Source of the DNA: Bacteroidales bacterium | GTDB taxonomy: Bacteria; Bacteroidota; Bacteroidia; Bacteroidales; UBA932 | Direction of reading: 5' to 3' | Length of the DNA stretch: 54,894 nucleotides | Assembly (NCBI GenBank): GCA_012513425.1 | Contig: JAAZCF010000165.1 | Span: forward strand, 1 to 54,894 | Part shown: positions 7,329 through 47,943 of the stretch, piece after piece | Position numbering within the stretch: position 1 is the first letter of the stretch | Layout of the letters: every line of letters starts with the position of its first letter | Made by a program: the position numbers and the translations under genes | The notes under the pieces: model-generated | Databases searched by the model: none | Seen by the model: the letters and a program-made list of their open reading frames with translations, nothing else | Told to the model about the DNA's origin: nothing

Positions 7329-7340
7329 CACTTATACCCC

Positions 7341-7357
7341 CTAATTATATTATACGC
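7341..7357 (-). promoter_or_regulatory. Promoter-like block GCGTATAATATAATTAG
   Basis: TATAAT lies at 7349..7354 on the minus strand, with TTATGT 17 nt upstream. The same 17-mer recurs at 11800..11816 and 17108..17124. Confidence 0.4.
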
Positions 7358-7385
7358 TGTTAGCTATTCAGACATAACACAATTG

Positions 7386-11799: not shown

Positions 11800-11816
11800 C
11801 TAAATATATTATACGC
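11800..11816 (-). promoter_or_regulatory. Promoter-like block GCGTATAATATATTTAG upstream of the small terminase gene
   Basis: TATAAT lies at 11808..11813 on the minus strand, immediately before RBS AGGAGGTG. The block is shared with two other loci. Confidence 0.35.
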
Positions 11817-11887
11817 AATGACAAATAAAATCAGAGCACAAAACGGATAATAAGAACTACAATGTAGCTCTTATAGATCCTATGGTA

Positions 11888-12002
11888 TTTTCACGGACTC
11901 GTATTTTTATTTAATACAAGTTCGTGATAAGGAGCCCTTATAATTTATATTGCCCCGCTATCACGGACTCGTATTTAAACATATACACTTGTAACGTGTT
12001 AT
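11888..12002 (+). promoter_or_regulatory. Conserved regulatory cassette, copy 1 (inverted relative to copies 2 and 3)
   Basis: 15-bp sites lie at 11891..11904, 11914..11928 and 11960..11974 (ATCACGGACTCGTAT / ATACAAGTTCGTGAT). They surround TTATAATTTATATT, and CTTGTAACGTGTT lies at the right end. Confidence 0.6.
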
Positions 12003-12405
12003 TTATACCCATTATTTATACGTAAACCGAGCCCCGTAAATGTATATACTACCGCGTAATTTTTGGACCTACACCTTGCAAATTTTGGACTGTTAATCTA
12101 CAGGCTGTAGATAGACGTGGACTCTGTTCCTCTATATCGCGAGCGCCGTAGCGCCAGGCGCGGGCAGAATTGTCAGAAAATTCGCGCAATTTTTGGATCG
12201 TCAGAATTGTCTGACAATTCAGAATAATCACTGTTTCACATGCAATTGAGACTATTCAGAATGTTCACGATTTCATATGCAAATGAAAATATTCTTACAA
12301 TTCTAAATATTCACGATTGCACATACATTTGCAACAATTCATTTTTATGCAATCATTCACATAAATATGAAATTGTGGCAATTCTGTGAACATTCCATTT
12401 TTCTG

Positions 12406-12434
12406 TTTACATTTCCATTCAATCATGATATATT
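12406..12434 (+). promoter_or_regulatory. Sigma-A-type promoter for the plus-strand early block
   Basis: TTTACA (12406..12411), a 17-nt spacer ending in TGa, then TATATT (12429..12434). It lies about 150 nt upstream of the 12594 gene. Confidence 0.6.
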
Positions 12435-12593
12435 ATAATTGTAAGTTGAATAAATAAATCAAACATTGAAAGCGTGGTGAAATTGCATGGCAATTTGAAA
12501 CAATTCTGACAATTCTGATTCGTTCTTTGACAACTGAATATTCTGACAATTCAGCGTATATCAAAATTACAAAGTGAAAGGGGAAAATTAGTT

Positions 12594-13103
12594 ATGTTAA
12601 AAAATATTTCTGCATTAGCTGAAAAGTTCACAAACGCTGAGGAGGTTCGCAAGGAATTAAAACGCGTGCAATCTATCAAGTGCCGCTTGAAAAAACAAAA
12701 AGCCCGCGAGGATTACGAAGCGCGCATGAAAGAGGTGCTTGAATATGAACAGGCCTTAAAAGAGGTGCGCGATTACTTCGAGCCGAAAAAGAAGCCTGTT
12801 ACGCAATTCACTTGGGATGACATTCAACAACTTGATTACGAAGAGACAATGAAAGCTATCAAGTCAATTCAGTCTAAAAAGTGCAACGTTCAATTCTTGA
12901 CAGAACGAATTGAAGATAACGTAGAATATCAGAAAGCATGCGAAATTGAGCAAATGTTGCTCGAACACAAAAAGAATATCAAGCCGGTTGAAGACACGGT
13001 TGTTCGCAAATCAGAAATAAAGAACTTGATAGAACATCTAGAAGGTTTAGAGCCAAAAGTCGACCGCGATTATGTGATAGACTTGCTAAGAAAGCTTATG
13101 TGA
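12594..13103 (+). CDS. Hypothetical early protein, Lys/Glu-rich coiled coil (IQSKK-motif family)
   Basis: 169 aa with RBS GAAAGGGG. The motif ETMKAIKSIQSKKCNV is shared with the 14710 gene. Confidence 0.6.
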   Translation: MLKNISALAEKFTNAEEVRKELKRVQSIKCRLKKQKAREDYEARMKEVLEYEQALKEVRDYFEPKKKPVTQFTWDDIQQLDYEETMKAIKSIQSKKCNVQFLTERIEDNVEYQKACEIEQMLLEHKKNIKPVEDTVVRKSEIKNLIEHLEGLEPKVDRDYVIDLLRKLM

Positions 13104-13151
13104 TGCGGGCCGCCTGCACAGGCGGTCCAACAACAAAGGAGGTAGTTAGCA

Positions 13152-13232
13152 ATGCGTCTGTTTACAATCAAAGGCAAACCTGCCGAAATTATGGCGCAGC
13201 TTAGATTGCTGATTCAAATATTCGGCCAATAA
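13152..13232 (+). CDS. Small ORF (26 aa) with a strong RBS
   Basis: AAAGGAGG lies 9 nt before the ATG. The product is MRLFTIKGKPAEIMAQLRLLIQIFGQ and is followed by hairpin 13240..13267. It is below the ORF-track size cutoff. Confidence 0.35.
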   Translation: MRLFTIKGKPAEIMAQLRLLIQIFGQ

Positions 13233-13623
13233 TCTACACAGACCGGGATTGGCCCATGGCCCGGTCTTTAAAATAAATAAACCCACGCCAGGGGGAGAAA
13301 GGCATTGAATTGTCAGAATATTCAGAATTATTGCGGCCTCGATTGGCCAAAGCTGAACCGTGCTGCATAGACGCGGTCTCAATTAGACTGAGCTAAGCCG
13401 CATAAAAGCCATCGCAATTGGCCCCTGCGTCACCAAGCAAAACCACACTGCATAAAAGCAGCGCCGCTTAGCTACACCTGACCTAGTTGTACTGCAATGC
13501 TGAACACTTTAGAAAATAAAATTGCTTATGCCATCCGCAAGGAAATGTAATATAATTAAAATAGTTACAGGAAATATAATCGCACCTGTAGCTACAATCA
13601 GCAAAATTATAAATTAGGAGTGA

Positions 13624-14076
13624 TTGATGATGAATATCAAGAGAGCGCGTCTGGTGGAAACTAGAAGCGGCCGCGCAGCAGTTGAAATGGCCGTACATTA
13701 CGGTGAAGAAGTTGATTTGATTACAATTAATAGTGACCAAATCGTCTACACCGAAGGCAACGACAATGTGCTGTGGTTTACATCCAGCTGGAGAAAGTTG
13801 GTAAGATACCTCAGTGTACCAAACGCTGTCAGCGTCTACAGGCAGTTTAAAGCAGTATGGAAGTTTCCATCTTACATCGAAGATGAATGTGACATTCGAG
13901 CGTTAGATTTACTGCTTGATTTCGTTTCATGTGCAAGCAAGCTGAGCGACAACTGGCAGAGCTTCTTAAACAATAATTATCCGTTTATAGAAGATTTTGA
14001 AACAGTGCTATTTGATTTAATAGACTGGCAAAATACGATAGTTTCAATAATTGAAAACAACGGTTGGGAAGATTAA
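13624..14076 (+). CDS. Hypothetical early protein
   Basis: 150-aa acidic ORF with RBS TTAGGAG. Confidence 0.55.
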   Translation: MMMNIKRARLVETRSGRAAVEMAVHYGEEVDLITINSDQIVYTEGNDNVLWFTSSWRKLVRYLSVPNAVSVYRQFKAVWKFPSYIEDECDIRALDLLLDFVSCASKLSDNWQSFLNNNYPFIEDFETVLFDLIDWQNTIVSIIENNGWED

Positions 14077-14219
14077 TCAAAGATGGGAGCGGTAAACCCA
14101 GCGCCGCTCCCAGCTACCCGAGCCGGAGGCGATAAGCTGAAAGGAGGTGAATCGGCTGCCTCCTCGGCGGGTAGGCACCGCCATCAATCCCCATACAGTT
14201 ACCTCTTAGATTCCTCTTT
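14077..14219 (+). ncRNA. GC-rich structured 3' region / ncRNA candidate
   Basis: Hairpins lie at 14085..14111 (GGGAGCGG/CCGCTCCC), 14118..14167 (loop displays AAAGGAGGTGA) and 14166..14182 (GGCGG/CCGCC). All lie between the stop codon and the terminator. Confidence 0.4.
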
Positions 14220-14247
14220 GCCGCGCCCCATTCGCGGCATCTTTTTT
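14220..14247 (+). terminator. Rho-independent terminator
   Basis: GCCGCG ccccatt CGCGGC followed by ATCTTTTTT. Confidence 0.7.
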
Positions 14248-14709
14248 AACCGCGCAACGCAGCCCCGATTGGACGATGCTAAACTACAACCTGAATAATG
14301 AAGTTCCATTCCGGCTAATCGACACCGCATGTAGTTCTTATTCGATGCTGAGTTTAACTACAGGCATGTGGACAAACACGGAAACCCATTACCGCAAGGA
14401 ACCGCACGCGGCCTCGATAGGTCCGAACTGAATCAGATAAAGCGGCCTCGATAAGACCATGCAATACAGCGCCACCGCGACCTTAGTTAGACGGAGTTAA
14501 AGACGGTATCTCACTACAGTGAGTCGTGTGCAGCTGCATAAAAGCAACTGCAGTAGGTCCCGTATCATCGAGCAAGACCGTACCACCATCTGCAGTAGAG
14601 CGCGGAAAATAAAATTTCCTGAATCATCTGCGTTAAGCTTGGTTATAATATAAGTAGAGTTAGAAAATAACTCAAAAATAAAAATTACAAAGTGAGGAGC
14701 GATAATATC

Positions 14710-15522
14710 ATGGCAAAGAAACAACTTAATAACGGTGTAGCTGTTAGCAACGACGCGCTGAACGGATTGTTCGCGGAAGAGGTTCAGGTGGTGAAGGTTG
14801 GCGGTGCAAATCAACTATCAAAGACTGCTCAGCTTACGCAAGTAGCTACAGTCATTGCAAACGAGATTTTTGCGAAAATCACTGCTGACCCAGAAACTTA
14901 CCAAGCAAAGGTTCTTGAGAGCCAAAAATCGCACGATGCAATGGATGAGCTAATCGATGAATTGTATCAGCTCGATACGGTAGACACAAGCTTCTTGCAA
15001 TCAGAACCTGAAGAGACTCTTGAGAAAATGATTCGCTCGCAGCAATCAAAACGTTCTCGAGCTAAAGGCAAACAAATGACTAAAGAGAACTACTTGAATA
15101 TGATGGTTGGAGCAATCTCAGAGAATCTACTACGCTTGGTTACTGGCAAGCCAAAGTCAGCTGGCGGCGGATATGTTGCGAAAGACATTGTCTACAGCGA
15201 AAAGGATTTAGAATATCTTGCACAGCATCCTACGGAGCTGAAAAAAGCAATCCGCAACATTCAAAGCAAGAAGTCAATTATGAAATCAAAAGCAGACTTT
15301 GACCCACAAAGCGAGCGTTGGCAACAGTTACTACAGGCCGAGCAACAGCTTAAGGAACTTCGTAGCCACGTAAATGGTGCGGTTAATAAAGAAGCCAAGG
15401 AAGCGTTAGAGGCGAAACAAAAGCTGGAAGAAATGTTAGCAACTAGAGACCTCGACAGCTTGCCACCAGAAGAAGCAAAGCAGCTACTCGATGCTGTTAA
15501 AGAAATGCTTGCTAGTAAGTAA
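14710..15522 (+). CDS. Hypothetical early protein (IQSKK-motif family, larger paralogue)
   Basis: ATG 14710 follows RBS AGTGAGGAG. The tracked GTG start lies inside the RBS. Motifs are ELKKAIRNIQSKKSIMK and MIRSQQSKRSRAK. Confidence 0.6.
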   Translation: MAKKQLNNGVAVSNDALNGLFAEEVQVVKVGGANQLSKTAQLTQVATVIANEIFAKITADPETYQAKVLESQKSHDAMDELIDELYQLDTVDTSFLQSEPEETLEKMIRSQQSKRSRAKGKQMTKENYLNMMVGAISENLLRLVTGKPKSAGGGYVAKDIVYSEKDLEYLAQHPTELKKAIRNIQSKKSIMKSKADFDPQSERWQQLLQAEQQLKELRSHVNGAVNKEAKEALEAKQKLEEMLATRDLDSLPPEEAKQLLDAVKEMLASK

Positions 15523-15525
15523 CGA

Positions 15526-15554
15526 GGGGTGCGTTTAGCGCCCCATTTATTTTA
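15526..15554 (+). terminator. Rho-independent terminator
   Basis: GGGGTGC gttta GCGCCCC followed by ATTTATTTTA. Confidence 0.7.
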
Positions 15555-15571
15555 TAAACGAGGTGAGACTG

Positions 15572-15727
15572 TTGCTGGCCGCATTTATGATAGTAGTATT
15601 CTTTTGGCGACTATGGGAGCTCATTCAACTAGACCGTTGCGCCAAGCATGGACACAAGTTCAAAGTCAATGGTAAGTATCTACAATGTGAAAGGTGTTAC
15701 ACAGTAATATATAACAGCCGCCAGTAG
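15572..15727 (+). CDS. Small membrane / Cys-rich ORF (46-51 aa)
   Basis: RBS GAGGTGA, then TTG 15572 or in-frame ATG 15587. The product is ..MIVVFFWRLWELIQLDRCAKHGHKFKVNGKYLQCERCYTVIYNSRQ. It is bracketed by two terminators. Confidence 0.4.
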   Translation: MLAAFMIVVFFWRLWELIQLDRCAKHGHKFKVNGKYLQCERCYTVIYNSRQ

Positions 15728-15741
15728 GCGGTTTCTTTTTT
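15717..15741 (+). terminator. Rho-independent terminator
   Basis: CCGCC agta GGCGG followed by TTTCTTTTTT. Confidence 0.75.
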
Positions 15742-16107
15742 AGACCGTAGCGCGGTGTCGATTGGACGGCGTATAGCATATCTACAGGCTTGTGGACAAA
15801 CTTCGCCACGCGGCACTGAGGGTAAGATTCAATGCAGCCTCGATTAGCCAAAGCTACTACTATACATCGGCGCAGCGCCACTCGGCCCAGGTTAGTTGAA
15901 CTACAGGTCTGTGAACATATTCCGCCATGCGGCGCTGAGGGGTCTCTGCGGCGCGGCCTCGATTAGTCAAGGTAGTACTTCACTATAGAGAAATAGTGCC
16001 ACTTCGCCCAATCGAAACCGCGATTATTACCTACAGTCTGCTTTGGCCTATAAAAGCAAATCTCGTAGACCCCGCGGCGCAGCGATGCAGTGGCGTCATA
16101 TTTTTTA

Positions 16108-16151
16108 GCCTATAAAAGCAAACTCATTGGCCTATAAAAGCAAACTCATTG
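16108..16151 (+). repeat. Perfect tandem duplication of a 22-bp unit
   Basis: GCCTATAAAAGCAAACTCATTG occurs twice, with a degenerate third copy at 16046..16065. Confidence 0.95.
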
Positions 16152-16330
16152 AACTACCTCGCCGCAGCGCCGGTGTAACTACAGGCATATTTATAATGGT
16201 TGCTGTGCTGGTGTAATTATAGGAAGATTCAGAACTGTTACTGGGTTAGTGAGTGGCGCGGCGCCGCGCGGCTGTCAGCCAAGCGAATCTGCGCGGGTTG
16301 GAGTCACCAAGCGTCGTATATTTATTGGAT

Positions 16331-16990
16331 CAGGTTGAGGTATTAAAATATTGAGATATTAAAATATTGAGATTTTGAGGTACAAGCGACTTTTTACTAC
16401 AAACCCAAGCGTATCAAGACTTTGAAGGGCTTCTGATTATCTTAATAACTCAATTAACTTAATTATCTAAATTATCTAAGTGACCTTGCGCGATTCGGAG
16501 CGGCTATATATAAATTGATAACTTTTTATAAATATGTCTATTAATTTCTATTAATGGATATTGCTAACTACAGTTCTTTCTAATATTAATTTCTATTATA
16601 TTATATAATCCAAAAATAATCTGATAAAATTCGTGCTAAAGAAAATAATAAATTACTATATAGATATAAAAGAAATCATATAGTATTGTAGATATATAAT
16701 TAGCACGAAAATTATCAGATTATATTTAGCTAATAGATATATTACATATGTAGATATATTTCTATATCCATATCCAGTATACATAATGTCTGTAGATAAA
16801 TAAAAAAGCTCATTTTAATAAAGGGATTCTAAATCGCGCGAGGTTGTTTAGATAATCAAAATAATTGAGTTAATTGAGGTGGTTGAGGTACATAGAAAGC
16901 TTCTAAAGCCTTGATACGATTGGGTTTGTGGTAAAAAAGTTATCTTAAAATCTAACACCTTAATATTTAATCTACCTCAATTATTGTTTA
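16331..16990. repeat. Imperfect palindrome of about 660 bp: 170-bp arms around an AT-rich iteron core (origin candidate)
   Basis: The left arm (16331..16500) matches the reverse complement of the right arm (16826..16990), for example CTTTTTACTACAAACCCAAGCGTATCAAGACTTTGAAG vs CTTTTTTACCACAAACCCAATCGTATCAAGGCTTTAGAAG. A nested inverted repeat lies at 16616..16639 / 16701..16724. Confidence 0.8.
16341..16372 (+). repeat. Perfect tandem duplication of a 16-bp unit
   Basis: TATTAAAATATTGAGA occurs twice, inside the left arm of the large inverted repeat. Confidence 0.95.
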
Positions 16991-17087
16991 TCTCAGCCGC
17001 GCTGCGGCACTGTGTCACATACTATCTACACCATTGTAGATACATAATAGCTGAATCACACCCATCAAAACTCGTGCAACAAAAGTG

Positions 17088-17124
17088 TTATATCAATTAA
17101 ACCTTGTGCGTATAATATAATTAG
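17088..17124 (+). promoter_or_regulatory. Promoter-like element with the GCGTATAATATAATTAG block
   Basis: TTATAT (17088..17093), a 17-nt spacer, then TATAAT (17111..17116). It lies 37 nt upstream of ATG 17153. Confidence 0.45.
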
Positions 17125-17152
17125 AGCGACCAACATAATAGGAGGTAACTGT

Positions 17153-17614
17153 ATGTTTGAGTGCAAATTGTGCCATAATCTACTACCAAAAGAAATGGAA
17201 TGTACATCGCATGAAAGGCTGTGTAACAAGTGTAACAACATGCTACACATATACAGACGCGCTATGTCTCAATCATCAATAACTGTAGAGCAACAAATGA
17301 CAGTAGCATATGTAGAAAGATTGATTGAGCACAATAAACAACGAGGCGGCTATGTGCCAAAGATCTACAACCGCCCATTGTCTGTTTACAAATGTGAGTA
17401 TTGTGGTAATAACTTTGGGTCAAGAGTCCAGACCAGTAAGTGTGAAGAGTGTAAGAAGCGTGAGGCTGTTTACCGGACATTGATACACAAAGTTAAAAGA
17501 ACTGGTAAACACTCCGACCGCTTAGCAGAAATAGAGGAATATTATACTATACAAGAGCGGCGCGGCTTGAAGGTGCCGAAAATATTCTTAAAACATCGAG
17601 GTGAGTTGTTGTGA
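17153..17614 (+). CDS. Double Zn-ribbon protein, tandem paralogue A
   Basis: 153 aa with RBS AGGAGG. Motifs are CKLC...CNKC, EHNKQRGGYVPKIY and CEYC...CEEC. Confidence 0.65.
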   Translation: MFECKLCHNLLPKEMECTSHERLCNKCNNMLHIYRRAMSQSSITVEQQMTVAYVERLIEHNKQRGGYVPKIYNRPLSVYKCEYCGNNFGSRVQTSKCEECKKREAVYRTLIHKVKRTGKHSDRLAEIEEYYTIQERRGLKVPKIFLKHRGELL

Positions 17615-18063
17615 TTATTACATGCGCACTGTGCCATCAACAAGGAGAGAGATCAAGTGCGAATCGAAGACTATGTAAGCCATGTAATCGTAAGCTGAAT
17701 AAGTACAAGAGGTTAGTAGTTAAAGACAGGGCAAAGCTTCCTCCAGGTAATATAAAACTATTAGAACAAATGGAAGCAATGTTCGAGCATAATAAGCAGC
17801 ACGGCGGCTATGTGCCGCAGTTCTATGGCAAACTTTTGTATGAGGGTACATGTGTTACATGCTTAAAACGTTTTAAATGGGTGTCTGGAAATGATATATG
17901 CCCAAATTGCAGAAAAGATAAAACTATGTTCTATGTCTATTATAACAAGCATGGCCTGGTTGGCAAAGCAGCAGAATATTATGACTACTATCTAGACTTG
18001 TATAGAAAAGGTCGTAAAGTTCCTCAATTGTTTATCGACCTATATACAGGCAAGAAGAAATAA
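17611..18063 (+). CDS. Double Zn-ribbon protein, tandem paralogue B
   Basis: 150 aa with a GTGA start/stop overlap with paralogue A. Motifs are CALC...CKPC, EHNKQHGGYVPQFY and CVTC...CPNC. Confidence 0.65.
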   Translation: MIITCALCHQQGERSSANRRLCKPCNRKLNKYKRLVVKDRAKLPPGNIKLLEQMEAMFEHNKQHGGYVPQFYGKLLYEGTCVTCLKRFKWVSGNDICPNCRKDKTMFYVYYNKHGLVGKAAEYYDYYLDLYRKGRKVPQLFIDLYTGKKK

Positions 18064-27322: not shown

Positions 27323-27559
27323 CTATTTTACAATATCATAGCTATAGCGAATGTATCGCGGATTATAAGCCTTTGTAGGCGTTCTAACAATTTTACCTTC
27401 TTGTAACAATTCTTCAATTACAAAGCGAGCCCTGTTTGGATTTTGACCTGCTTCATTAGCAATAGCTGATATAGACATCGTTTTGCCTCTGTTCTTTTTA
27501 ATTACTTTTAAGATTTGTTCCTTCTCTTCTGGATAAATTTTTATGTTGATTATTGCCAT
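27323..27559 (-). CDS. Winged-helix DNA-binding protein candidate
   Basis: ATG 27559 follows RBS GGAGGTGG. The sequence MSISAIANEAGQNPNRARFVIEELLQEGKIV is wHTH-like. Confidence 0.45.
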   Translation of the reverse strand: MAIINIKIYPEEKEQILKVIKKNRGKTMSISAIANEAGQNPNRARFVIEELLQEGKIVRTPTKAYNPRYIRYSYDIVK

Positions 27560-27791
27560 GCTTTCCACCTCCTATCTGATTTATCATCCGATGTAGTTTA
27601 TGTTGCTCTGCAGGTCTTAAGTTTACTGTAGTATGCACTTCTTGGGCAGCCTTTTCTTTTATTGCATTCATCAACTTCTCTTGTGTCTTTGGACCAATAC
27701 CAGGAACGTTCTTAATTGCCTCTTCAATTAGGTCCCAAGTGTCATTACAGCCCCTAATGTATGCTCTCAGCATTTTCTCTTGTAAACCCAT
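27498..27791 (-). CDS. Helix-hairpin-helix protein
   Basis: Start at ATG 27791 (MGLQEKML) after RBS AAGGGGTG. HhH motif VPGIGPKTQEKLM. The 3' end overlaps the next gene by about 60 nt. Confidence 0.45.
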   Translation of the reverse strand: MGLQEKMLRAYIRGCNDTWDLIEEAIKNVPGIGPKTQEKLMNAIKEKAAQEVHTTVNLRPAEQHKLHRMINQIGGGKHGNNQHKNLSRREGTNLKSN

Positions 27792-27819
27792 ATAAAACAC
27801 CCCTTAAAACAGTGATTTT

Positions 27820-28002
27820 TACTTGTAACATGTTCACAATCATTAACACAAGTTCGTGATAGGGTTTAATATAATTATATTAAGCAGGGTGGCACGAACT
27901 CGTAATAAGCTTGTTTACGAGTCCGTGAAAAGTCTAGTTTTTCAAAAGGAGCCTTATTGACTCCCATAAATATATTATAACATATTATCACGAACTTGTA
28001 TA
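27820..28002 (-). promoter_or_regulatory. Conserved regulatory cassette, copy 2, plus an extra sigma-A-like promoter
   Basis: Sites lie at 27846..27863, 27890..27903, 27913..27929 and 27987..28001. The central 16-bp palindrome TAATATAATTATATTA is at 27867..27882. The minus-strand promoter is TATACA, 17 nt, TGtTATAAT (27974..28002). Confidence 0.6.
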
Positions 28003-28009
28003 CGCTGTA

Positions 28010-28417
28010 TTATATCTTTACTACTTGTATACCTGCGGCGCGGAGTAGCCTCAGTCCTGTGTCCTCTTTCCAGTCCTCAAAATAGTACACTGTAGAAAAC
28101 CCGCCAGGTGTGTTAATAATCGCTGCGGCGCATTGTTTGCACGGTGCCAGCGTTACAAACATCACTTTGTCAGGGTCTTGGCATTTATTTTTAACCAGAC
28201 AATTTATCTCTGCATGGACACACCCATATTTGCCATCTACAACACATAGACAATTAGCGAGTCCTTTCGGTCCACCGTTCAATCCAATGCTGTAGACTTG
28301 AGTAAAATCTTTATCTGTTATGATTGCTGCTACTTTTCTTTCTCGGCATTTTGATAGTGTAGCTAGATTTTGCGTAAATTCTTTAAAGACCTTTAATCTC
28401 ATGTTCAATTGGACCAA
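28010..28417 (-). CDS. dCMP deaminase (ComEB / cytidylate deaminase family); start uncertain
   Basis: Zinc motifs CVHAEINC and PCKQCAAAI. About 130 aa. Confidence 0.8.
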   Translation of the reverse strand: MVQLNMRLKVFKEFTQNLATLSKCRERKVAAIITDKDFTQVYSIGLNGGPKGLANCLCVVDGKYGCVHAEINCLVKNKCQDPDKVMFVTLAPCKQCAAAIINTPGGFSTVYYFEDWKEDTGLRLLRAAGIQVVKI

Positions 28418-39434: not shown

Positions 39435-39616
39435 TCCGTTCCCCCCACACTTGAATTTATCAATCTATTAATCCACTCACCAATCATTTCCGGATTTTCT
39501 ACAGCTTTATAAACAATGAAACCATAGAACACGTAACTGATTATCGTTAGTGCGAAAACAAAGATGATAAAACCGATAACCAAGCGTTCGAATCTTTTAT
39601 GCTTTTTACGATTCAT
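39431..39616 (-). CDS. Small membrane protein
   Basis: 61 aa with one clear TM segment, LVIGFIIFVFALTIISYVFYGFIVY. Confidence 0.45.
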   Translation of the reverse strand: MNRKKHKRFERLVIGFIIFVFALTIISYVFYGFIVYKAVENPEMIGEWINRLINSSVGGTE

Positions 39617-40209
39617 TCCATTTCCTCCAATTTGTTCTTTAATGTATTTTTAAATGTTTTCAATACTTGCGTTACATATGCTTGCGAGCATTGTAGTTCT
39701 TCAGCAATCTTTGTATGTGTCTTTCCAAAATTAGACTCAATCCATGCACCTACAATCCTCTTATGCAATGGATTTTTTAAAGCATTGTAGCATTCTTTCA
39801 ATGACTGTAATATATTATTGACACCATGTGAAGCTATTGCTTCATCTTCAGCAGTAAACGGACTTTCAAATGTGTCAAGTAATGTCATTCCATCCTCATC
39901 ATCTTCATTAATAGGTTGGTTGCAAGATATTGTATTCAGTATTGCTTGGGTGTTTATACTTCTCACATAAGAGCCTAATCTATTGTAAATACAGACAGTG
40001 GCGTAGGTTGAGAATTTGTTGTTCTTATTAGGCTTAAAATTGAGTATGGCGTTAAATAATGCTTCGTACGCAAAGCTTATAGCGTCAAGATCATCTTCCA
40101 AATAGAATTTTCGTAATTGTGCGTGTATGAGGCCTTGGTTTAATTCAATAAGCTCAGTAACCACTTCTTCTGTCTTTGGTAATAACAACAGCTCCTCTAT
40201 TCTTTTCAT
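39613..40209 (-). CDS. Sigma-70 family sigma factor (regions 2 and 4 only)
   Basis: Start trimmed to MKRIEELL (ATGA overlap). Region 2-like DAISFAYEALFNAILNFKPNKNNKFSTYATVCIYNRL. Region 4 HTH THTKIAEELQCSQAYVTQVLK. Confidence 0.7.
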   Translation of the reverse strand: MKRIEELLLLPKTEEVVTELIELNQGLIHAQLRKFYLEDDLDAISFAYEALFNAILNFKPNKNNKFSTYATVCIYNRLGSYVRSINTQAILNTISCNQPINEDDEDGMTLLDTFESPFTAEDEAIASHGVNNILQSLKECYNALKNPLHKRIVGAWIESNFGKTHTKIAEELQCSQAYVTQVLKTFKNTLKNKLEEME

Positions 40210-40526
40210 TTCCTGGCTTTTTCTACAAGTGCTTTTACTTCTGCTAGTGTGTAACATACACCTGCAATACCTCCAGCATCTTGTAGCTGCTTTATGAACA
40301 GGAGCTGATGTGGTGTAGGTTTACCATCTTTCGCCTTCAACTCAATACCTACAAACTTGCCTCTAACGCACGCTATGAAGTCAGGTATTCCCTTGTTGTA
40401 TCTATCTGATGCTTTGTAGAAATGAATGTCAGGCTGAACTTCCAACCATTCTTTCACTTTTCTTGTTAGTGTTGCTTCCTGCGAGTATTTTGTTTGGTCG
40501 GATGATAAGGGCTTCTCCATCTTCAC
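40206..40526 (-). CDS. VRR-NUC domain nuclease
   Basis: GIPDFIACVRGKFVGIELKAKDGKPTPHQLLFIKQLQDAGG matches the D...ExK pattern. Confidence 0.75.
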   Translation of the reverse strand: MKMEKPLSSDQTKYSQEATLTRKVKEWLEVQPDIHFYKASDRYNKGIPDFIACVRGKFVGIELKAKDGKPTPHQLLFIKQLQDAGGIAGVCYTLAEVKALVEKARK

Positions 40527-40641
40527 TTATATGCACCCCCAGCGTCTCTCCCTCTTTTAGAGCCCATTTTCTAGCAACCCAGCCAGGGACCTGTACCAGT
40601 ACATTTCTCGGATTAGTGACGCGAGAGTCTTTAATGTGCAT
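40429..40641 (-). CDS. AbrB/SpoVT-type DNA-binding protein
   Basis: VLVQVPGWVARKWALKEGETLGVHISEDGEALIIRP resembles a swapped-hairpin barrel motif. Its 3' end overlaps the VRR-NUC gene by 98 nt. Confidence 0.55.
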   Translation of the reverse strand: MHIKDSRVTNPRNVLVQVPGWVARKWALKEGETLGVHISEDGEALIIRPNKILAGSNTNKKSERMVGSSA

Positions 40642-42321
40642 CTACAGGCCTCCTTTCAAATGGTTTAGAACGTCCATACTCATGTCACCTTTACTTCGAA
40701 TTGTATTGTAGATAACTCTGTCAATTGTTCCTTTAGCAATGAAGATATAATATTTGCATCGCTTCGGTTGCTTGACCACTGAACCATATATTCTCTCGAT
40801 GCTTTGTTTGAACAATTCATAACTATACCCAAGACTGAAATATATCGCGATGTGTGCATTAGTGAGTGTAAGTCCTTTGTCCGCAGACGCCGGATTGGCA
40901 ATGAGGTAGCGGACTTTCTCCTCCTTAAATGCTCTAATAGCTGCGTTCTTTTCATTAATGTTAGTGTCACCGTAAACGAGAGCACACTTATCACCAAGCC
41001 TTTTCTTCAATATCTCAAACTCTTTCTTGTACATACACCATATAATGGCCTGCTCATCACCAAGACCCTGCAGCAACTTATCAAGTGCCTCAAACCGGTA
41101 CTCAGATAGTAGATGTACTTCTTGCTGAGGTATACCATGTATCTTATTGTATTTCATAGCCTCAGTGTCTATAATAAATCCAGATGTGACCTGATTCAAT
41201 TTATTGAGACTTGCTGCAGTGCTAGGCGCTGTAATGACAATGTTGTCGCCTAGTTCTAAGTACAGTTGTTTCTTCAGCTTGTTGTAGTGCTCTTTCAATT
41301 CATTAGGCATTGTTAACTCAACCTCAATGAAGTCGCGGCCAGGTGTCTCTAATACGTCTTCTTTATCTACATACAGTGAATAAGACTTAATCAAAGAAAG
41401 CAATTCTTCTCGTCTATCCTCACGCACTTTCAACTTCTCATATTGCGGATTACGCGAGACATTCTCGAAGAAGTATTGCTTGAACTGTGTCCAAGATTTA
41501 TGCACACCGTAAAAGTCAATAGATTGTAGTTGTCTGTAGTACTCCCACTCACCATTAGGTGCAGGAGTTCCAGATAATAAGTACCATCGCTTCACATTCC
41601 AAGCAAATTCTACAGCTGCTTTTGCAAACTTCGAACTACTACTCTTCATTGCTGAGCTCTCATCTACAAAGCAACCGTGAATTCCTAGTTTTTCAATATG
41701 TTCTCGATACTGAACAAATGACTCAATGTTAGTGATATACAGATTTGCATCTTCTTTGAACTTCGCTAGTCTTTTAGCTTTGCTCGTGTCGTGTAGATTA
41801 ACTACTCTCAGCTCTGGAAATATGTTCCGAGCATCCTCAAGCCAAGCGTTTTCGATTAAGATCAGAGGACACAGCACTAGCCACTTATGATGCGGATTTC
41901 TTTTGATGTCATCTACAATGATTTGTAGACTCATAGGTGTCTTTCCAGTGCGTGTGTCATAGAAGAACGCAAACCTGTTGTTAACTTCTGCTAGCTCCCT
42001 GCCAAGCTGTTGATGAGGCCACAAGAAGCCTGGATCTCCTGTTGGTCCATGTTCTAATAACGCCTTCGTAACGCTGCGGCGCTGCATTTCTTTATCATAG
42101 ATACGCTGCACCGCAGGTGGCGCTTTGTCAATATTCGATTCATCAATATTTCTAAACAGTTTCAATACTAAGTCGATATTACGTACAGTTGTCCGAAACA
42201 CAGTGTTGACACGATTTCTATGTACGTATGGAATTTTATTCACTAGTTCCAGCGTTGCAGCATCGCCGCGGTCACAACGTATTTCTATAAACTGTTCATT
42301 TATTATCAGCTTGTTTCCCAT
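40642..42321 (-). CDS. SNF2-family DNA helicase
   Basis: 559 aa with motif I DTRTGKT, motif II VDESSAMK and the C-terminal helicase lobe. Confidence 0.85.
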   Translation of the reverse strand: MGNKLIINEQFIEIRCDRGDAATLELVNKIPYVHRNRVNTVFRTTVRNIDLVLKLFRNIDESNIDKAPPAVQRIYDKEMQRRSVTKALLEHGPTGDPGFLWPHQQLGRELAEVNNRFAFFYDTRTGKTPMSLQIIVDDIKRNPHHKWLVLCPLILIENAWLEDARNIFPELRVVNLHDTSKAKRLAKFKEDANLYITNIESFVQYREHIEKLGIHGCFVDESSAMKSSSSKFAKAAVEFAWNVKRWYLLSGTPAPNGEWEYYRQLQSIDFYGVHKSWTQFKQYFFENVSRNPQYEKLKVREDRREELLSLIKSYSLYVDKEDVLETPGRDFIEVELTMPNELKEHYNKLKKQLYLELGDNIVITAPSTAASLNKLNQVTSGFIIDTEAMKYNKIHGIPQQEVHLLSEYRFEALDKLLQGLGDEQAIIWCMYKKEFEILKKRLGDKCALVYGDTNINEKNAAIRAFKEEKVRYLIANPASADKGLTLTNAHIAIYFSLGYSYELFKQSIERIYGSVVKQPKRCKYYIFIAKGTIDRVIYNTIRSKGDMSMDVLNHLKGGL

Positions 42322-43622: not shown

Positions 43623-43847
43623 GGAAATCCCTCCTTTATCTCGTTTTTGTGTTTTTTCTTAATTATCTTGGTTATCTTAATTATTTAAGCCGTCACGGAT
43701 AGGGTGGGCCTTTATAAAAAACAAAATGATTTTTATTTTTTGAAAACAAAAATTTAAAAAGGTCGGTTAGATAATTGAGATTTCTAAAATAATTAAGATA
43801 ATTAAAATATTAAAATAATGGCCTTTTTTCAATAATAAAATTAATTA

Positions 43848-44327: not shown

Positions 44328-44909
44328 TTATTCACCTCCTTGCTTATACCATATCACTGTAGCATCCTTAATGCCGAACTTCATCGCTGAGGCGTAGGTA
44401 TGACGAAATACATCTATGCGATAATTCTTTATTGCTCCACCCGTATCCTCAGCGCGCCCGCGCTCTACAGTGCCATCAGGATAGAGGATAATCATCTCAG
44501 AACCATAAGGTATAATGTTCGGGTCAACTGCAAATGTTCCTGGTCCAGGTTTAGTGCCTGTAGCAGTACTGTTAGGATTACCATCTGAATTAATGCCGTT
44601 GCGGTCATCATAAGGCGAATAGGCAGAAATTCTAAACTTTGCTACATTGAAGTTCTTATTAAAGGTAACGTCCATATCTGACAAATAAACCGGCCGTTCA
44701 AGTTGCTCTAGTAGATAGTCATTTGCATCTACAAGAGCCTTGTTCAATTCATTTAGATGTCTCACCTCCTTTAAGTAATCTGTAGCCTCGTTACTCACCG
44801 CCACTAGTTTTGGCTGCATATCCTCAATACCGTTGTTATAACCTGTTATGTATGCAACTCCTACAGAGACTACAAACCCAGTGGTTATAAGAACATTGCG
44901 AAATTTCAT
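44328..44909 (-). CDS. Membrane-anchored 3D-domain cell-wall protein
   Basis: N-terminal TM segment. The C-terminus FRISAYSPYD...GTFAVDPNIIPYGSEMIILYPDG...RAEDTGGAIKNYRIDVF is a 3D domain. Confidence 0.65.
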   Translation of the reverse strand: MKFRNVLITTGFVVSVGVAYITGYNNGIEDMQPKLVAVSNEATDYLKEVRHLNELNKALVDANDYLLEQLERPVYLSDMDVTFNKNFNVAKFRISAYSPYDDRNGINSDGNPNSTATGTKPGPGTFAVDPNIIPYGSEMIILYPDGTVERGRAEDTGGAIKNYRIDVFRHTYASAMKFGIKDATVIWYKQGGE

Positions 44910-45062: not shown

Positions 45063-45174
45063 AACACGTTACAAGCCCAGAATCCTCGATACAAGCCCGT
45101 GATAGGCCCCTAATATAATTATAAGCCTTATATTATCACGGACTTGTATTAAATAAAAATACGAGTCCGTAAAA
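45063..45174 (-). promoter_or_regulatory. Conserved regulatory cassette, copy 3
   Basis: AACACGTTACAAG lies at 45063..45075, with sites at 45089..45106, 45135..45149 and 45159..45174. The centre TAATATAATTATAAG is at 45111..45125. It is colinear with the reverse complement of copy 1. Confidence 0.6.
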
Positions 45175-45206
45175 TTAAAGAAGCCCACCGATTTTTCTCG
45201 GTGAGC
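45170..45206 (-). terminator. Terminator of the late operon
   Basis: On the minus strand: GCTCACCGA gaaaaa TCGGTGGGC followed by TTCTTTAATTTTA. Confidence 0.6.
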
Positions 45207-45214
45207 TCCATAAT

Positions 45215-45445
45215 TCATTCCTCTTCGTCATTAAAGCCAGGAGTCGTCGGGTCAATTACCACACCAAGTGTAGCTAATACTATAAGCACTGCATCAGCTG
45301 CAGCTAAGATTTTATTTTGTAAAACTGTATCCAATAAGTGGCCCTTGCCAAACAACACGAGCACAGCTTGCGCGGCGACGAGGATTTGCGAAATCAGCGT
45401 CATATAGAACATTTTGTTATTGCGTTTCTTGAAGAACTCTTTCAT
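45215..45445 (-). CDS. Holin, phiLC3-like family
   Basis: 76 aa with two TM segments. The C-terminus LGVVIDPTTPGFNDEEE matches the DPTT.G signature. Confidence 0.65.
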   Translation of the reverse strand: MKEFFKKRNNKMFYMTLISQILVAAQAVLVLFGKGHLLDTVLQNKILAAADAVLIVLATLGVVIDPTTPGFNDEEE

Positions 45446-45467: not shown

Positions 45468-46688
45468 TTAGCCCTCAGTTGCTATATCTAAGACAAAGTC
45501 GTACGTTATTTTCATCGTATATTGGTCTGTTTTTGTAACCGGTGCGTCTAATAGTGCCCGTGACGCAATATTCATTTTTGGCATCACGTATCCACTATTG
45601 AGTAGCATTTTATCATCAAATACGCATAAAAAGTCTGGCATGTTGAAATTACTTAATGAGTAATCTGAGGACACGCGCCTTGTACGCTCAGTATAATAGT
45701 TAGTTGTAATCAAAAGTTGTCCTTCCTCAAATCTCAGTTTTGCACTTCCACTCGCCAAAGAACCAATCTCTTTGTTATTTATCGCATTGAAATTACTATC
45801 CAGCTCTGTAATTTGATGTGTAGCACCACTACTACTAACTATAAACTTACTACCGTCCCATACAATACCACGAGCGTTGTAATTGTTTGGTAAAGATACA
45901 CTAACTGGTGTAGCCGCAGCAGGGTTGTTTAAATCCGCTACGTATAACGGTTGGGAACTGCTATTTCTAGCAAAATAAATCTTATCCCCAACAATCTCAA
46001 AATCTTCAAAAGAGCTAGGTAGATTATACTCGTTTAGCAGATTAAACTGCTTATCAAATACTCGCAGCTTATTACTACTACCGCTACTAGTACTACCAGT
46101 ACTACTAGTATCAGTACCAAGTACATAAATTAGTCCGTTATGATATTTTCCAGCAACGTTATATTGTAATGGTCGGTTAAAGTAATTAGGTAATGTGGTT
46201 TGCCAGTTATACATTAACACTTCTGACTCCCCAATAAAATACAAGCTTTGAAATACTCCATTCCCCGCATGACTTGGGAAATCGAACACCATGTGTACTC
46301 GTTCTAAATTGGTATAACTTTCTTTTGTGTTATACGTACCGCGTAGCACGTCGCTACCACTATACGTTTCATGCGTGTGTGCGTATCCAATTTCTTTTCC
46401 TTTTAGTAACCATTCATTGTCAGGGTCTTCTGGGTGAGATGCGTCAGTTAAGACTAATGTTCGAAACACATCTCTAATGTCCCCGTACACATCACGTCCA
46501 CCCGTTGCTTTATTACGGATAAACAGCCCTTTAATTGCTAGTCGATATAAATAGCTTCCAACAGCTTTACTAATAAAGTTATGTGTATTCGCTTCATCGA
46601 CTTTTCTACCCGTCAACTCGTCAAATAATTCAATTTTAATTTCTCCTCTTGGAGCCATTTCTGGATAGATTACTTTTTCTTGTAACAT
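45468..46688 (-). CDS. Tail fibre-associated / receptor-binding candidate
   Basis: 406-aa ORF following the fibre gene. It has a Ser/Thr/Gly tract, GTDTSSTGSTSSGSSNK. No family was recognised. Confidence 0.4.
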   Translation of the reverse strand: MLQEKVIYPEMAPRGEIKIELFDELTGRKVDEANTHNFISKAVGSYLYRLAIKGLFIRNKATGGRDVYGDIRDVFRTLVLTDASHPEDPDNEWLLKGKEIGYAHTHETYSGSDVLRGTYNTKESYTNLERVHMVFDFPSHAGNGVFQSLYFIGESEVLMYNWQTTLPNYFNRPLQYNVAGKYHNGLIYVLGTDTSSTGSTSSGSSNKLRVFDKQFNLLNEYNLPSSFEDFEIVGDKIYFARNSSSQPLYVADLNNPAAATPVSVSLPNNYNARGIVWDGSKFIVSSSGATHQITELDSNFNAINNKEIGSLASGSAKLRFEEGQLLITTNYYTERTRRVSSDYSLSNFNMPDFLCVFDDKMLLNSGYVMPKMNIASRALLDAPVTKTDQYTMKITYDFVLDIATEG

Positions 46689-46689
46689 G

Positions 46690-47943
46690 TTATACCTCCT
46701 TTAGTTCCACAATGAAGTTTTCACCGATTTGCAAATCATCTGGATATTGTACAACATCAACCATACCCTTTCTCGGCTCGTCAATTACATTTGTGATGAT
46801 GCGTTCTTTAACTAAATACTGTAGCACTTTATCGTCTGTGCCGTTTTTGAGTAAATCAACTTCTAACTCTAATTCACTTATTCGGCTTTTCAAGCTATTT
46901 AATTCAGCCTGTAAACCCGTTATGTCGCTTACACTGTGGCTATGAGATGTAGGTGGGAATTTAGTAGGCTTATTCTCGATATTTTCCCAAGATACCGAGC
47001 CGCCAACCTCAAGTTGTTCAATTTTCTCATTAAGGACACGTCCCATATTCGCGCTCAATGCGCTTGTAGTAGAAGTAGACGTTAGATTATCTACAACCGT
47101 TATACCGCCACTTGAACTCTGTTCCGCTTTAGCATACGTCTGCTTAATTGCGTCTTGTACGTTTGTAGCGGTAATTTTACCTGAACTGTCAATAAATGCT
47201 GTTTCACTAGCGTTTTGTTTTTCATAACGAGTTTTCGGTAAAATGTTTGTTGTCTCGGTTTGTAAGTCGATAGGGTTTGTTGTAAAGTCTCGTATTTCTC
47301 CACCTTTAAATTCACCGGCGAAAACAAATTCATTACCGTTGTAGATATAAATCGTAGAAGCGCCGTTCTTCGTTTCATCTTCAAGTACAATAACCATGTC
47401 GTTATTTGACACGTTTAGACTACTTAATTCTGCATAGGTGTCTACAGTTGTACTAAAGTTACCTACATTACTTAATGCGTTTATCTGCTGTTGTACGTTT
47501 TCTGTTACGCCCTTCAACGCATTAATCTCATCCGTTGTAACTTCTACTCCCGCAATTGATTTCACCACTAATTTACCGTTTTCAGTAATAATCGTTTCGC
47601 CATCTACAATATCGTCGGGAATTGTATCTTCTAAGTTTTGAATGCGGGTGCTGTGATTGGCCAATTCGGCCTGTAGACCGTTTACATCTGAAATATCGTG
47701 CTCGTGTGCCGACGGTGGAAATGTGGAAGGTTTGCCGATAATCGAACCCCATGTAACAGGGCCGCTACCACCGCCACCTACATATGGTGTACCATCTGGA
47801 TTAACGAGTATGACTTTGTGCGCTTTCTTACCTAAATACACGTCAGGTCTTTCCATACCCTTTATGGTAGTTACATCATCTACAACGACACCTATAAGAG
47901 CTTTGTTATCTAAGACTACATCCGGTCTACTTAGCTTCGTCAT
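46690..47943 (-). CDS. Tail fibre protein with duplicated HxH motif
   Basis: KPSTFPPSAHEHDISDVNGLQAEL and NKPTKFPPTSHSHSVSDITGLQAEL flank a coiled and beta-rich shaft. Confidence 0.6.
   Translation of the reverse strand: MTKLSRPDVVLDNKALIGVVVDDVTTIKGMERPDVYLGKKAHKVILVNPDGTPYVGGGGSGPVTWGSIIGKPSTFPPSAHEHDISDVNGLQAELANHSTRIQNLEDTIPDDIVDGETIITENGKLVVKSIAGVEVTTDEINALKGVTENVQQQINALSNVGNFSTTVDTYAELSSLNVSNNDMVIVLEDETKNGASTIYIYNGNEFVFAGEFKGGEIRDFTTNPIDLQTETTNILPKTRYEKQNASETAFIDSSGKITATNVQDAIKQTYAKAEQSSSGGITVVDNLTSTSTTSALSANMGRVLNEKIEQLEVGGSVSWENIENKPTKFPPTSHSHSVSDITGLQAELNSLKSRISELELEVDLLKNGTDDKVLQYLVKERIITNVIDEPRKGMVDVVQYPDDLQIGENFIVELKEV

Follow-up and report, generated by a model that had tools for sequence, protein, structure and literature searches.

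The window, meaning the whole stretch of 54,894 nucleotides analysed here, reads from its layout as a complete phage genome. The assembly is probably circular, and tandem repeats are shared by its two ends. Genes were mapped from the layout of open reading frames (ORFs) together with family scans (Pfam, PHROGs and NCBIfam), which covered about 25 ORFs of the window. The late genes lie on the minus strand, where the terminase small-subunit gene, terS (11787), is followed by the genes for the terminase large subunit, the portal and the major head protein; the late block then crosses the window ends and continues with the tape measure protein, the tail proteins and a holin (45215-45445). Beyond the holin are a 3D-domain protein, a YyaC-like protease, a helicase (40642-42321) and an AbrB-like protein (40429-40641), and further along the same stretch a sigma-70 family protein (39613-40257), a ligase, a primase-helicase and a dCMP deaminase (28010-28417). 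Past the deaminase follow an ORF of 100 amino acids (27498-27800), a winged-helix protein (27323-27559) and DNA polymerase A. The genes of the plus-strand block at 12000-18063 have no assigned function. The YyaC-like protease and the sigma factor, which is distantly similar to SigK, SigE and SigH, are sporulation-related genes carried by the phage. The window showed no integrase or lysogeny module, and a tRNA scan and an Rfam scan of it were both empty.

A near-identity search with 10 kb of the window returned no match among cultured phages, whose best identities are at most 33% for DNA polymerase and at most 43% for the terminase large subunit. Cultured phages are therefore too distant to supply an annotated relative for comparison. 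In a genome scan, the terminase was found in three short contigs of metagenome-assembled genomes (MAGs) only, with Lachnospiraceae and Clostridium sp. among the bins, which is a weak hint of hosts in Lachnospiraceae or Clostridium. The hosts of this phage family are probably anaerobic Clostridia, that is, Gram-positive bacteria.

Architecture of the three intergenic cassettes

A 14-nt site, TCACGRACTYGTAT (reverse complement ATACRAGTYCGTGA), matches the window nine times with at most one mismatch, compared with 0.06 matches expected from shuffled sequences, and a tenth copy carries two mismatches. All ten sites are confined to three intergenic cassettes of about 115 bp each, and both site orientations are present in every cassette. 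Each 14-bp site is a weak dyad of the form TCACG-N4-CGTAT, in which the positions CG..C..GTA are invariant. Read in the direction of the genes, a cassette begins with a site (TCACG...), 9 nt, a second site (ATAC...GTGA), 10-12 nt and TATAAT, and continues with about 14 nt, another site (TCACG...), about 12-17 nt and an outer box; site starts within the window's cassettes are accordingly spaced by 23 and 46-47 bp. The original prediction that three intergenic regions share one architecture was thus borne out, with all ten sites in place and the layout as described.

In cassette 1, on the plus strand, the distal site (11891-11904, TCACGGACTCGTAT) forms an inverted pair with the next site (11914-11927, ATACAAGTTCGTGA) across a 9-nt spacer. 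The second member of the pair stands at the -35 position, with 11 nt between its end and the TATAAT of the -10 region (11939-11949). This TATAAT (11939-11944) points toward the plus-strand block, while TATAAA is read on the other strand at 11944-11949. The proximal site (11961-11974, again TCACGGACTCGTAT) would span about +10 to +23 if transcription starts some 7 nt past TATAAT, and the outer box (11987-11999) is an imperfect palindrome, ACTTGTAACGTGT, which contains the originally described AACACGTTACAAG on the other strand.

Cassettes 2 and 3 are oriented on the minus strand. The distal site of cassette 2 (27915-27928) is followed by the site at the -35 position (27892-27905, TTACGAGTTCGTGC on the minus strand), a perfect 18-bp palindrome, TTAATATAATTATATTAA (27866-27883), that contains TATAAT on both the minus (27874-27879) and the plus strand (27870-27875), the proximal site (27846-27859) and the outer box (27821-27833, ACTTGTAACATGT on the plus strand), which leaves about 30 nt to the ATG at 27791. 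Cassette 3 consists of a distal site (45159-45172), a site at the -35 position (45136-45149), a -10 region (45113-45123) with TATAAT on the minus strand at 45118-45123, 12 nt after the preceding site, and TATAAT also on the plus strand, a proximal site (45089-45102) and an outer box (45063-45076, AACACGTTACAAGC on the plus strand), which lies about 150 nt before the ATG at 44909.

An extra site (27988-28001, minus strand) is found upstream of cassette 2, with 8 nt between it and a TGT-TATAAT box (27974-27979, minus strand), and is set apart from the core of the cassette by a hairpin and TTTT. This hairpin (27947-27965, minus strand; GGGAGUCAAUAAGGCUCC, then UUUUG) is terminator-like, lies between the dCMP deaminase gene and cassette 2, and is entered directly from the TGT-TATAAT box. 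Equivalent hairpins are present in three relatives (L001-L003), in which the TGT-TATAAT box, an extended -10, is also kept. The extra site belongs to this second promoter-like element and not to core cassette 2.

The positions of the cassettes at the borders of gene blocks were also as foreseen. They stand at the heads of three transcription blocks, each facing the next block (the plus-strand block in the case of cassette 1), and cassettes 2 and 3 each follow a hairpin and T-run; for cassette 3 this is an intrinsic terminator (45180-45209, minus strand) located after the holin gene and immediately upstream of the cassette. The distance to the first gene is 590 nt for cassette 1 and 150 nt for cassette 3, with further promoter-like sequences in between. 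Cassette 1 is inverted relative to the other two, again as anticipated, and positions 11886-11930 are 93% complementary to 45133-45177 over 45 nt. Orientation was further expected to track the downstream genes throughout, and this holds for the cassette as a whole and fails for two of its parts, the outer box and TATAAT.

The outer box, AACAYGTTACAAG, is indeed present in all three cassettes, and is found on opposite strands in cassettes 2 and 3, which are otherwise co-oriented. Its sequence forms a 13-bp palindrome with imperfections, ACTTGT-W-ACAAGT, and in one relative genome the symmetry is complete or almost complete. The better half falls on opposite strands in these two cassettes because the box is palindromic, and the box therefore has no fixed orientation. 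A fourth exact copy covers a start codon at 46679-46691. As an independently enriched motif the outer box was rejected: with mismatches allowed, the palindrome has 28 matches in comparison with 23.5 expected, and the half-site WTACRAGT has 14 in comparison with 10.

The -10 hexamer is TATAAT, with six of six positions matching, in all three window cassettes. It does read toward the downstream genes as claimed, but in all three cassettes TATAAT or TATAAA is also readable on the other strand, in each case 10-12 nt from a flanking site. Direction is thus not given by TATAAT alone; it is given by gene context and by the relatives. No TTGACA-like -35 hexamer is found at 17-bp spacing in the window cassettes, where the hexamer ACRAGT matches at two of six positions, nor is there a TGn extension (TG at -15/-14), and a promoter scan of the cassettes returned only 9-of-12 matches, which use GTGATA and TATATT. 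The cassettes therefore have the -10 of a canonical sigma-70/sigma-A promoter and lack both its -35 and the TGn alternative, in agreement with the earlier proposal that the conserved site takes the place of a -35; the site lies at a fixed 10-12 nt from TATAAW. Such a promoter should be weak for Firmicute sigma-A polymerase alone. A second promoter-like box, gcgTATAATATA, which precedes terS (11787), the ORF ending at 7331 and position 17153, also lacks a -35, and the missing -35 is thus not diagnostic for the cassettes.

Conservation in uncultured relatives

One pattern scan and three protein-anchored scans of IMG/VR yielded about 80 loci of an uncultured phage family, in which identity to the proteins of the window is 53-67% for DNA polymerase, 65-82% for the terminase large subunit and 52-67% for the helicase. 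Site clusters in these relatives were located with a weight matrix built from the sites. Three syntenic cassette positions are kept: before the winged-helix and DNA polymerase genes, in the gap between terS and a divergent block with a homologue of p169, and 2-3.5 kb before the helicase. The last of these positions was anchored on the helicase gene; a 406-amino-acid tail-region protein used as a probe for cassette 3 gave no matches in the relatives. In eight independent samples, a look-up of one common homologue recovered the same arrangement of deaminase gene, 100-nt spacer with cassette, and winged-helix gene.

In 1.28 Mb of sequence from the relatives, a plus site is followed by a minus site at a start-to-start distance of 44-47 bp 33 times, compared with 0.06 expected if sites were scattered, and no plus-then-minus pair at any other spacing was found in the same 1.28 Mb. 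The conservation in related genomes that had been proposed as a check of the cassettes is therefore present, at the same three syntenic positions. A site, 10-12 nt, TATAAW, about 14 nt and an inverted site make up the core that is kept. The third site is clade-specific, lying 23 bp upstream in the clade of the window and 22 bp downstream in the clade of L054, and is absent or degenerate outside these two clades. In the most distant relatives, L009 and L018, the order ...CGTAA, N11, TATATT, N13, TTACG... stands directly before the winged-helix gene. The site motif hardly varies (WTACRNGTYCGTRA) among relatives with protein identities of only about 55%.

Among 31 distinct cassettes, 25 have a -10 box matching TATAAT at five or more of six positions, 7-12 nt past the upstream site, whereas the same test in the direction opposite to the genes succeeds in 13. 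In most cassettes the upstream site ends 10-12 nt before the -10. This strict spacing looks more like that of a promoter element or activator box than that of a mere operator. Repeated sites that overlap promoter elements, at positions kept in relatives, are the pattern of operator-flanked promoters, and this pattern is found here.

Cassettes of one genome are 71-78% identical to each other (75% for cassettes 1 and 3 of the window), whereas positional orthologues are 56-70% identical. Spacers outside the sites are also common within a genome, such as TTTTTATTTA in cassettes 1 and 3 of the window and the TTTAACTCG spacer in L002 and L052. The greater likeness of cassettes within a genome than between positional orthologues indicates concerted evolution, and the homogenisation could result from gene conversion between the repeats or from co-evolution with genome-specific factors.

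A candidate binding protein

Only three predicted DNA-binding proteins are conserved in the family, namely the winged-helix protein, the AbrB-like protein and the sigma factor. The latter two are equally conserved, so that presence or absence does not single out the binder. The 100-amino-acid ORF (27498-27800) has no homologue in any relative and is therefore not the binder. The gene for the winged-helix protein (27323-27559, minus strand; 78 amino acids) is part of the cassette 2 operon, just before the DNA polymerase A gene, and in most relatives examined, even distant ones, it lies directly downstream of a cassette or one small ORF away. Such adjacency is the classic arrangement of an autoregulated regulator. 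We regard this protein as the most likely binder of the 14-bp sites. The original prediction had left the choice between a dedicated binding protein and the phage sigma factor; the former is the most economical reading, given that the winged-helix gene, which had been named as a candidate, is downstream of the cassette in most relatives examined, and the latter is unlikely.

An AlphaFold2 model of the 78-amino-acid protein (pLDDT 82) has the topology H-H-H-E-E of a winged helix. MarR, ArsR and Z-alpha winged helices give the best matches in the PDB, at 13-25% identity, E-values of about 1e-3 and TM-scores normalised to the query of 0.55-0.7, while Pfam matches to HTH_24 and FaeA fall below the cut-off. 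In 15 homologues with identities of only 38-57% to the protein of the window, R43 and R45 of helix 3 and N66, Y69, R71, Y72 and Y74 of the wing are invariant, which parallels the conserved DNA core CG..C..GTA. The recognition-helix sequence NPNRARF tends to accompany GTGA sites and NQNRVRY to accompany GTAA sites; this possible covariation is a hint only, since it is confounded by phylogeny and has counter-examples in L012 and L015. The winged-helix family comprises 717 clusters, of which the best 120 listed encode proteins of 77-89 amino acids on contigs of up to about 60 kb. Against this protein as the binder stands the fact that a winged helix of 78 amino acids has no obvious dimerisation domain.

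Proposed control of the cassettes and alternative readings

To the reading that the cassettes are -35-less promoters bracketed by 14-bp sites for a phage DNA-binding protein, likely the winged-helix protein, and serve repression or feedback, we give about an even chance. Each cassette would start a transcription unit from a promoter with a good -10 (TATAAT/TATAAA) and no TTGACA-like -35, flanked by the putative binding sites. With the -10 placed at -12 to -7, the upstream site would cover approximately -37 to -24 and the inverted copy approximately +10 to +23; in the clade of the window, the third site would lie 23 bp further upstream and the 13-bp palindrome about 25 bp further downstream. 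If the winged-helix protein is the binder, it would control its own synthesis and coordinate three blocks: the plus-strand genes from cassette 1, the winged-helix and DNA polymerase genes from cassette 2, and the genes for the helicase, AbrB-like protein, sigma factor, ligase and primase from cassette 3. As the protein accumulates, it would, once bound, lie over both the -35 region and the initially transcribed region, and host RNA polymerase would be excluded or trapped. As to the sign of regulation, we infer, as a weak preference, repression or feedback shut-off in place of activation, because the inverted site on the downstream side is kept more universally than any other element, because all non-late blocks carry a cassette and something must therefore fire unaided at the start of infection, and because the promoter-like elements of the gcgTATAATATA class are also without a -35. 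Extra flanking sites and a regulator gene inside a controlled operon also fit repression. Points against the favoured reading are the expected weakness of the promoter for sigma-A polymerase alone, the strict spacing of site and -10, the 590 and 150 nt with promoter-like sequences that follow cassettes 1 and 3, and that a conserved host factor would explain a DNA motif that is kept more closely than the phage proteins.

The geometry just described could also be that of activator boxes, in which the site at -37 to -24 replaces the -35 and a small phage protein recruits host RNA polymerase, the precedents being the MotA box of T4 middle promoters and p4 at the A3 promoter of phi29; the cassettes would then be middle promoters, used after an unaided early promoter that is possibly the TGT-TATAAT box at 27974-27979. 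An excellent -10 lacking both a -35 and TGn is what such a promoter would have, the site ends 10-12 nt before it, near the 12 +/- 1 bp of the MotA box (PMC2988021), and the separate extended -10 upstream of cassette 2 is kept in L001-L003. We consider this possible but doubtful, since an equally conserved inverted site lies past the presumed start, where activators normally do not act, the other promoter-like class likewise has no -35, the presence of a cassette at all non-late blocks leaves no clear unaided early promoter, and the upstream TATAAT box leads straight into the terminator-like hairpin. A stronger form of dependence, in which host polymerase uses the cassettes only together with the winged-helix protein and gene conversion keeps the module identical within a genome, appears rather improbable to us. 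As the box and the -10 are dyad-symmetric in this phage, each cassette would then fire in both directions, and if this were true the cassettes would be a Gram-positive analogue of T4 sigma appropriation. The sites might instead belong to a regulator encoded by the host and exploited by the phage family, which would tie early transcription to the physiological state of the host, for which the Spo0A boxes in phi29 are a precedent. The near constancy of the motif (WTACRNGTYCGTRA) beside phage proteins of only about 55% identity, the binning of relatives with Clostridium and Lachnospiraceae MAGs and the sporulation-related genes of the phage would all suit such a regulator. The known boxes do not: the sites contain the CGAAC of the LexA (Cheo) box CGAAC-N4-GTTCG and have no GTTCG partner, matches to this box at two mismatches (18, with 12.7 expected) do not mark the cassettes, and by-eye comparison with the CIRCE, Spo0A, Rex and Fur/PerR/Zur boxes showed no fit to the 14-nt site or its spacing. 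Whole-cassette homogenisation within genomes and the fixed adjacency of the winged-helix gene point instead to a circuit internal to the phage, and a host regulator is in our view unlikely.

If the phage sigma factor (39613-40257) read the cassettes and used TACRAGT as a -35, this would account for the conserved non-TTGACA sequence 17-19 nt upstream of the -10, and a sigma-70 family protein with distant similarity to SigK, SigE and SigH is encoded. We nevertheless infer that such recognition is distinctly unlikely, as the same 14-nt sequence recurs in inverted form downstream and upstream, which is not required of a -35, the sigma gene itself lies inside the block headed by cassette 3, and the box carried by late genes, namely terS (11787) and the ORF that ends at 7331, is the other one, gcgTATAATATA. 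The cassettes may also be dispersed repeats that are maintained chiefly for recombination or as module boundaries, promoter function coming second. They lie exactly at module borders, cassette 1 is inverted along with its gene block, and the excess of within-genome (71-78%) over orthologue identity (56-70%) extends to spacers outside the sites. However, homogenisation is equally expected of co-regulated promoters, and the conservation of site positions, spacing and -10 across the whole family far exceeds the needs of recombination substrates, which makes this account very unlikely. Structured nucleic acid, with the inverted pair forming a DNA cruciform or an RNA hairpin (as terminator back-up or in processing or antitermination), is more improbable still. 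Extrusion of the site pairs as hairpins had been suggested originally, and on paper the 14-bp/9-nt inverted pairs, which lie just past terminators, fold well, with predicted RNA hairpins of -15.7 to -17.4 kcal/mol and z-scores of -5.5 to -6.4. However, in 11 cassettes the arms pair in 83.8% of cells, and shuffling of the 3' arms among the cassettes gives 84.6%; six of the 11 have two positions of the stem that do not pair, and the covariation score of the arms is 0.114, the shuffled mean being 0.130. The arms thus vary independently, as two separate copies of a consensus, which is the behaviour of protein sites and not of a selected stem. Despite the good energies, a functional hairpin or cruciform was therefore rejected, because pairing is not maintained by compensatory change; in addition, no U-tract follows the hairpin of the inverted pair, the L054 clade has the extra site at the opposite side of the promoter, many relatives have no pair, and no Rfam family matches.

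Repressor-operator arrays at early promoters are known from lambda CI/Cro (OR, OL) and TP901-1 CI (OR, OL, OD). The cassettes resemble these in that several copies of a short site overlap or flank the -35, -10 and +1, in the use of the module at more than one promoter, and in the location of the regulator gene (here the candidate regulator) within a controlled operon, which would lead to autoregulation. They differ in that no integrase or lysogeny module accompanies them in the window, in sites of 14 bp that are weakly dyadic, with a core pair that is inverted around the -10 with starts 44-47 bp apart and not adjacent, and in a candidate regulator that is a 78-amino-acid winged helix and not a CI-type helix-turn-helix protein with an oligomerisation domain. 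The phi29 protein p4 is a small DNA-binding protein whose targets are inverted repeats at several places near early and late promoters (A2c-A2b-A3), where it activates the -35-less A3 promoter and represses others; its sites, all in one control region, consist of 6-bp arms spaced 15 bp apart. The cassettes, in contrast, are a module at three distant loci, with no relation to p4 in sequence or fold.

In mycobacteriophage L5 and other cluster A phages, an asymmetric 13-14-bp site of the gp71 repressor is repeated in intergenic spaces, with more than 20 single, dispersed stoperators in one orientation relative to transcription (PMC9283540). The cassettes share with this system a repeated intergenic site at an early promoter and downstream, in an orientation related to the direction of transcription. 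However, their ten sites fall in three clusters with both orientations in each, and there is no two-domain repressor; they are not stoperators of the L5 type, and the resemblance is superficial. At T4 middle promoters, a MotA box 12 +/- 1 bp from an excellent -10 replaces the -35 (PMC2988021). The cassettes have this geometry, with the site ending 10-12 nt from TATAAW, as a resemblance of layout only: the box sequence is different, a further copy in inverted form is found past +1, the host is likely to be an anaerobic Gram-positive bacterium, and no MotA or AsiA homologue was found among the approximately 25 ORFs of the window scanned with Pfam, PHROGs or NCBIfam.

In kind, the cassettes are probably operator-flanked early promoters as ordinarily found in phages, and their putative binding-site motif is new. 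Together with it comes a candidate regulator family in an uncultured phage group that is apparently widespread. The value of these results lies in annotation and in synthetic parts, and not in a new principle. The 14-bp motif can be used to annotate promoters in related metagenomic contigs, and the cassettes provide the first regulatory map for a large family of phages (about 55-60 kb) without a cultured member, one that marks the predicted starts of the early and replication transcription units, the 14-bp operator motif and a candidate regulator.

A second promoter-like class

Besides the cassettes, the window carries a second promoter-like class with the consensus gcgTATAATATAwtTA. Copies were found on the minus strand at 11805-11821, 7346-7362 and 27971-27983, and on the plus strand at 17106-17125 and 14640-14655. 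At three genes, namely the terminase small-subunit gene terS (11787, minus strand), ORF 17153 and the ORF that ends at 7331, this box lies only ~6 nt upstream of the ribosome-binding site. Another copy, at 27979, leads directly into a hairpin and TTTT run that follow the deaminase gene, a box-plus-hairpin arrangement that is kept in three IMG/VR contig loci from uncultured phage relatives (L001-L003). Such boxes could serve as promoters, either late or sigma-dependent, or might give rise to a tiny RNA.

Repeats in the plus-strand block and AT-rich fields

No credible ORF was found in the ~590 nt after cassette 1 (12002-12594), and this stretch of the plus-strand block (12000-16300 considered) is dense in short conserved repeats. 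The repeat ATTTTTGGAC occurs at 12059, 12082 and 12189 and has a counterpart, ATTTCTGGACT, in L033, L040, L041 and L043; TTGTCAGAATATTC includes a perfect 20-nt inverted pair (12534-12553 and 13306-13325), and GCGGCCTCGATTGGCC and TAACTACAGGCATGTGGACAAAC are present in five and four copies, respectively. Two AT-rich fields, at 16330-16940 and 43650-43815, are composed of iterated TTAATTATCT-like units and contain long imperfect inverted repeats (I1, I2, I4, I10 and I12). These fields may be replication origins.

A palindromic hairpin between terS and cassette 1 (11848-11868) has an inverted 21-nt match (95%) at 44641-44661, inside the 3D-domain gene, which opens the gene block behind cassette 3. 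The 13-nt outer box at the cassette edge, AACATGTTACAAG, has a fourth exact copy (~0.003 expected by chance) at 46679-46691, overlying the start codon of a 406-aa ORF in the tail module.

Rearrangement, small ORFs and contig ends

In one relative, L036 (605-1111; compared with L029-L043), the homologue of p169, a gene in the block after cassette 1, is co-oriented with, not divergent from, the terminase gene. This hints that the block with cassette 1 at its boundary has been inverted or rearranged. After cassette 2, a 100-aa ORF shares ~60 nt (27498-27559) with the beginning of the winged-helix gene. No homologue of this ORF was found in the relatives; in its place they have either no ORF or different small ones that are unrelated. 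Since both ends of the contig (1-260 and 54676-54894) share 24- to 30-nt GGCCATTCCCATTCAGGTAA-like tandem repeats, it is probably a circular assembly cut within a repetitive gene.

Cassette identity within and between genomes

The window cassettes were compared with those of L003/L030/L079, L029/L046 and L002/L052. With spacers included, identity is 71-78% between cassettes within one genome versus 56-70% between positional counterparts from different genomes. The higher identity within genomes indicates that this dispersed regulatory repeat has undergone concerted evolution.
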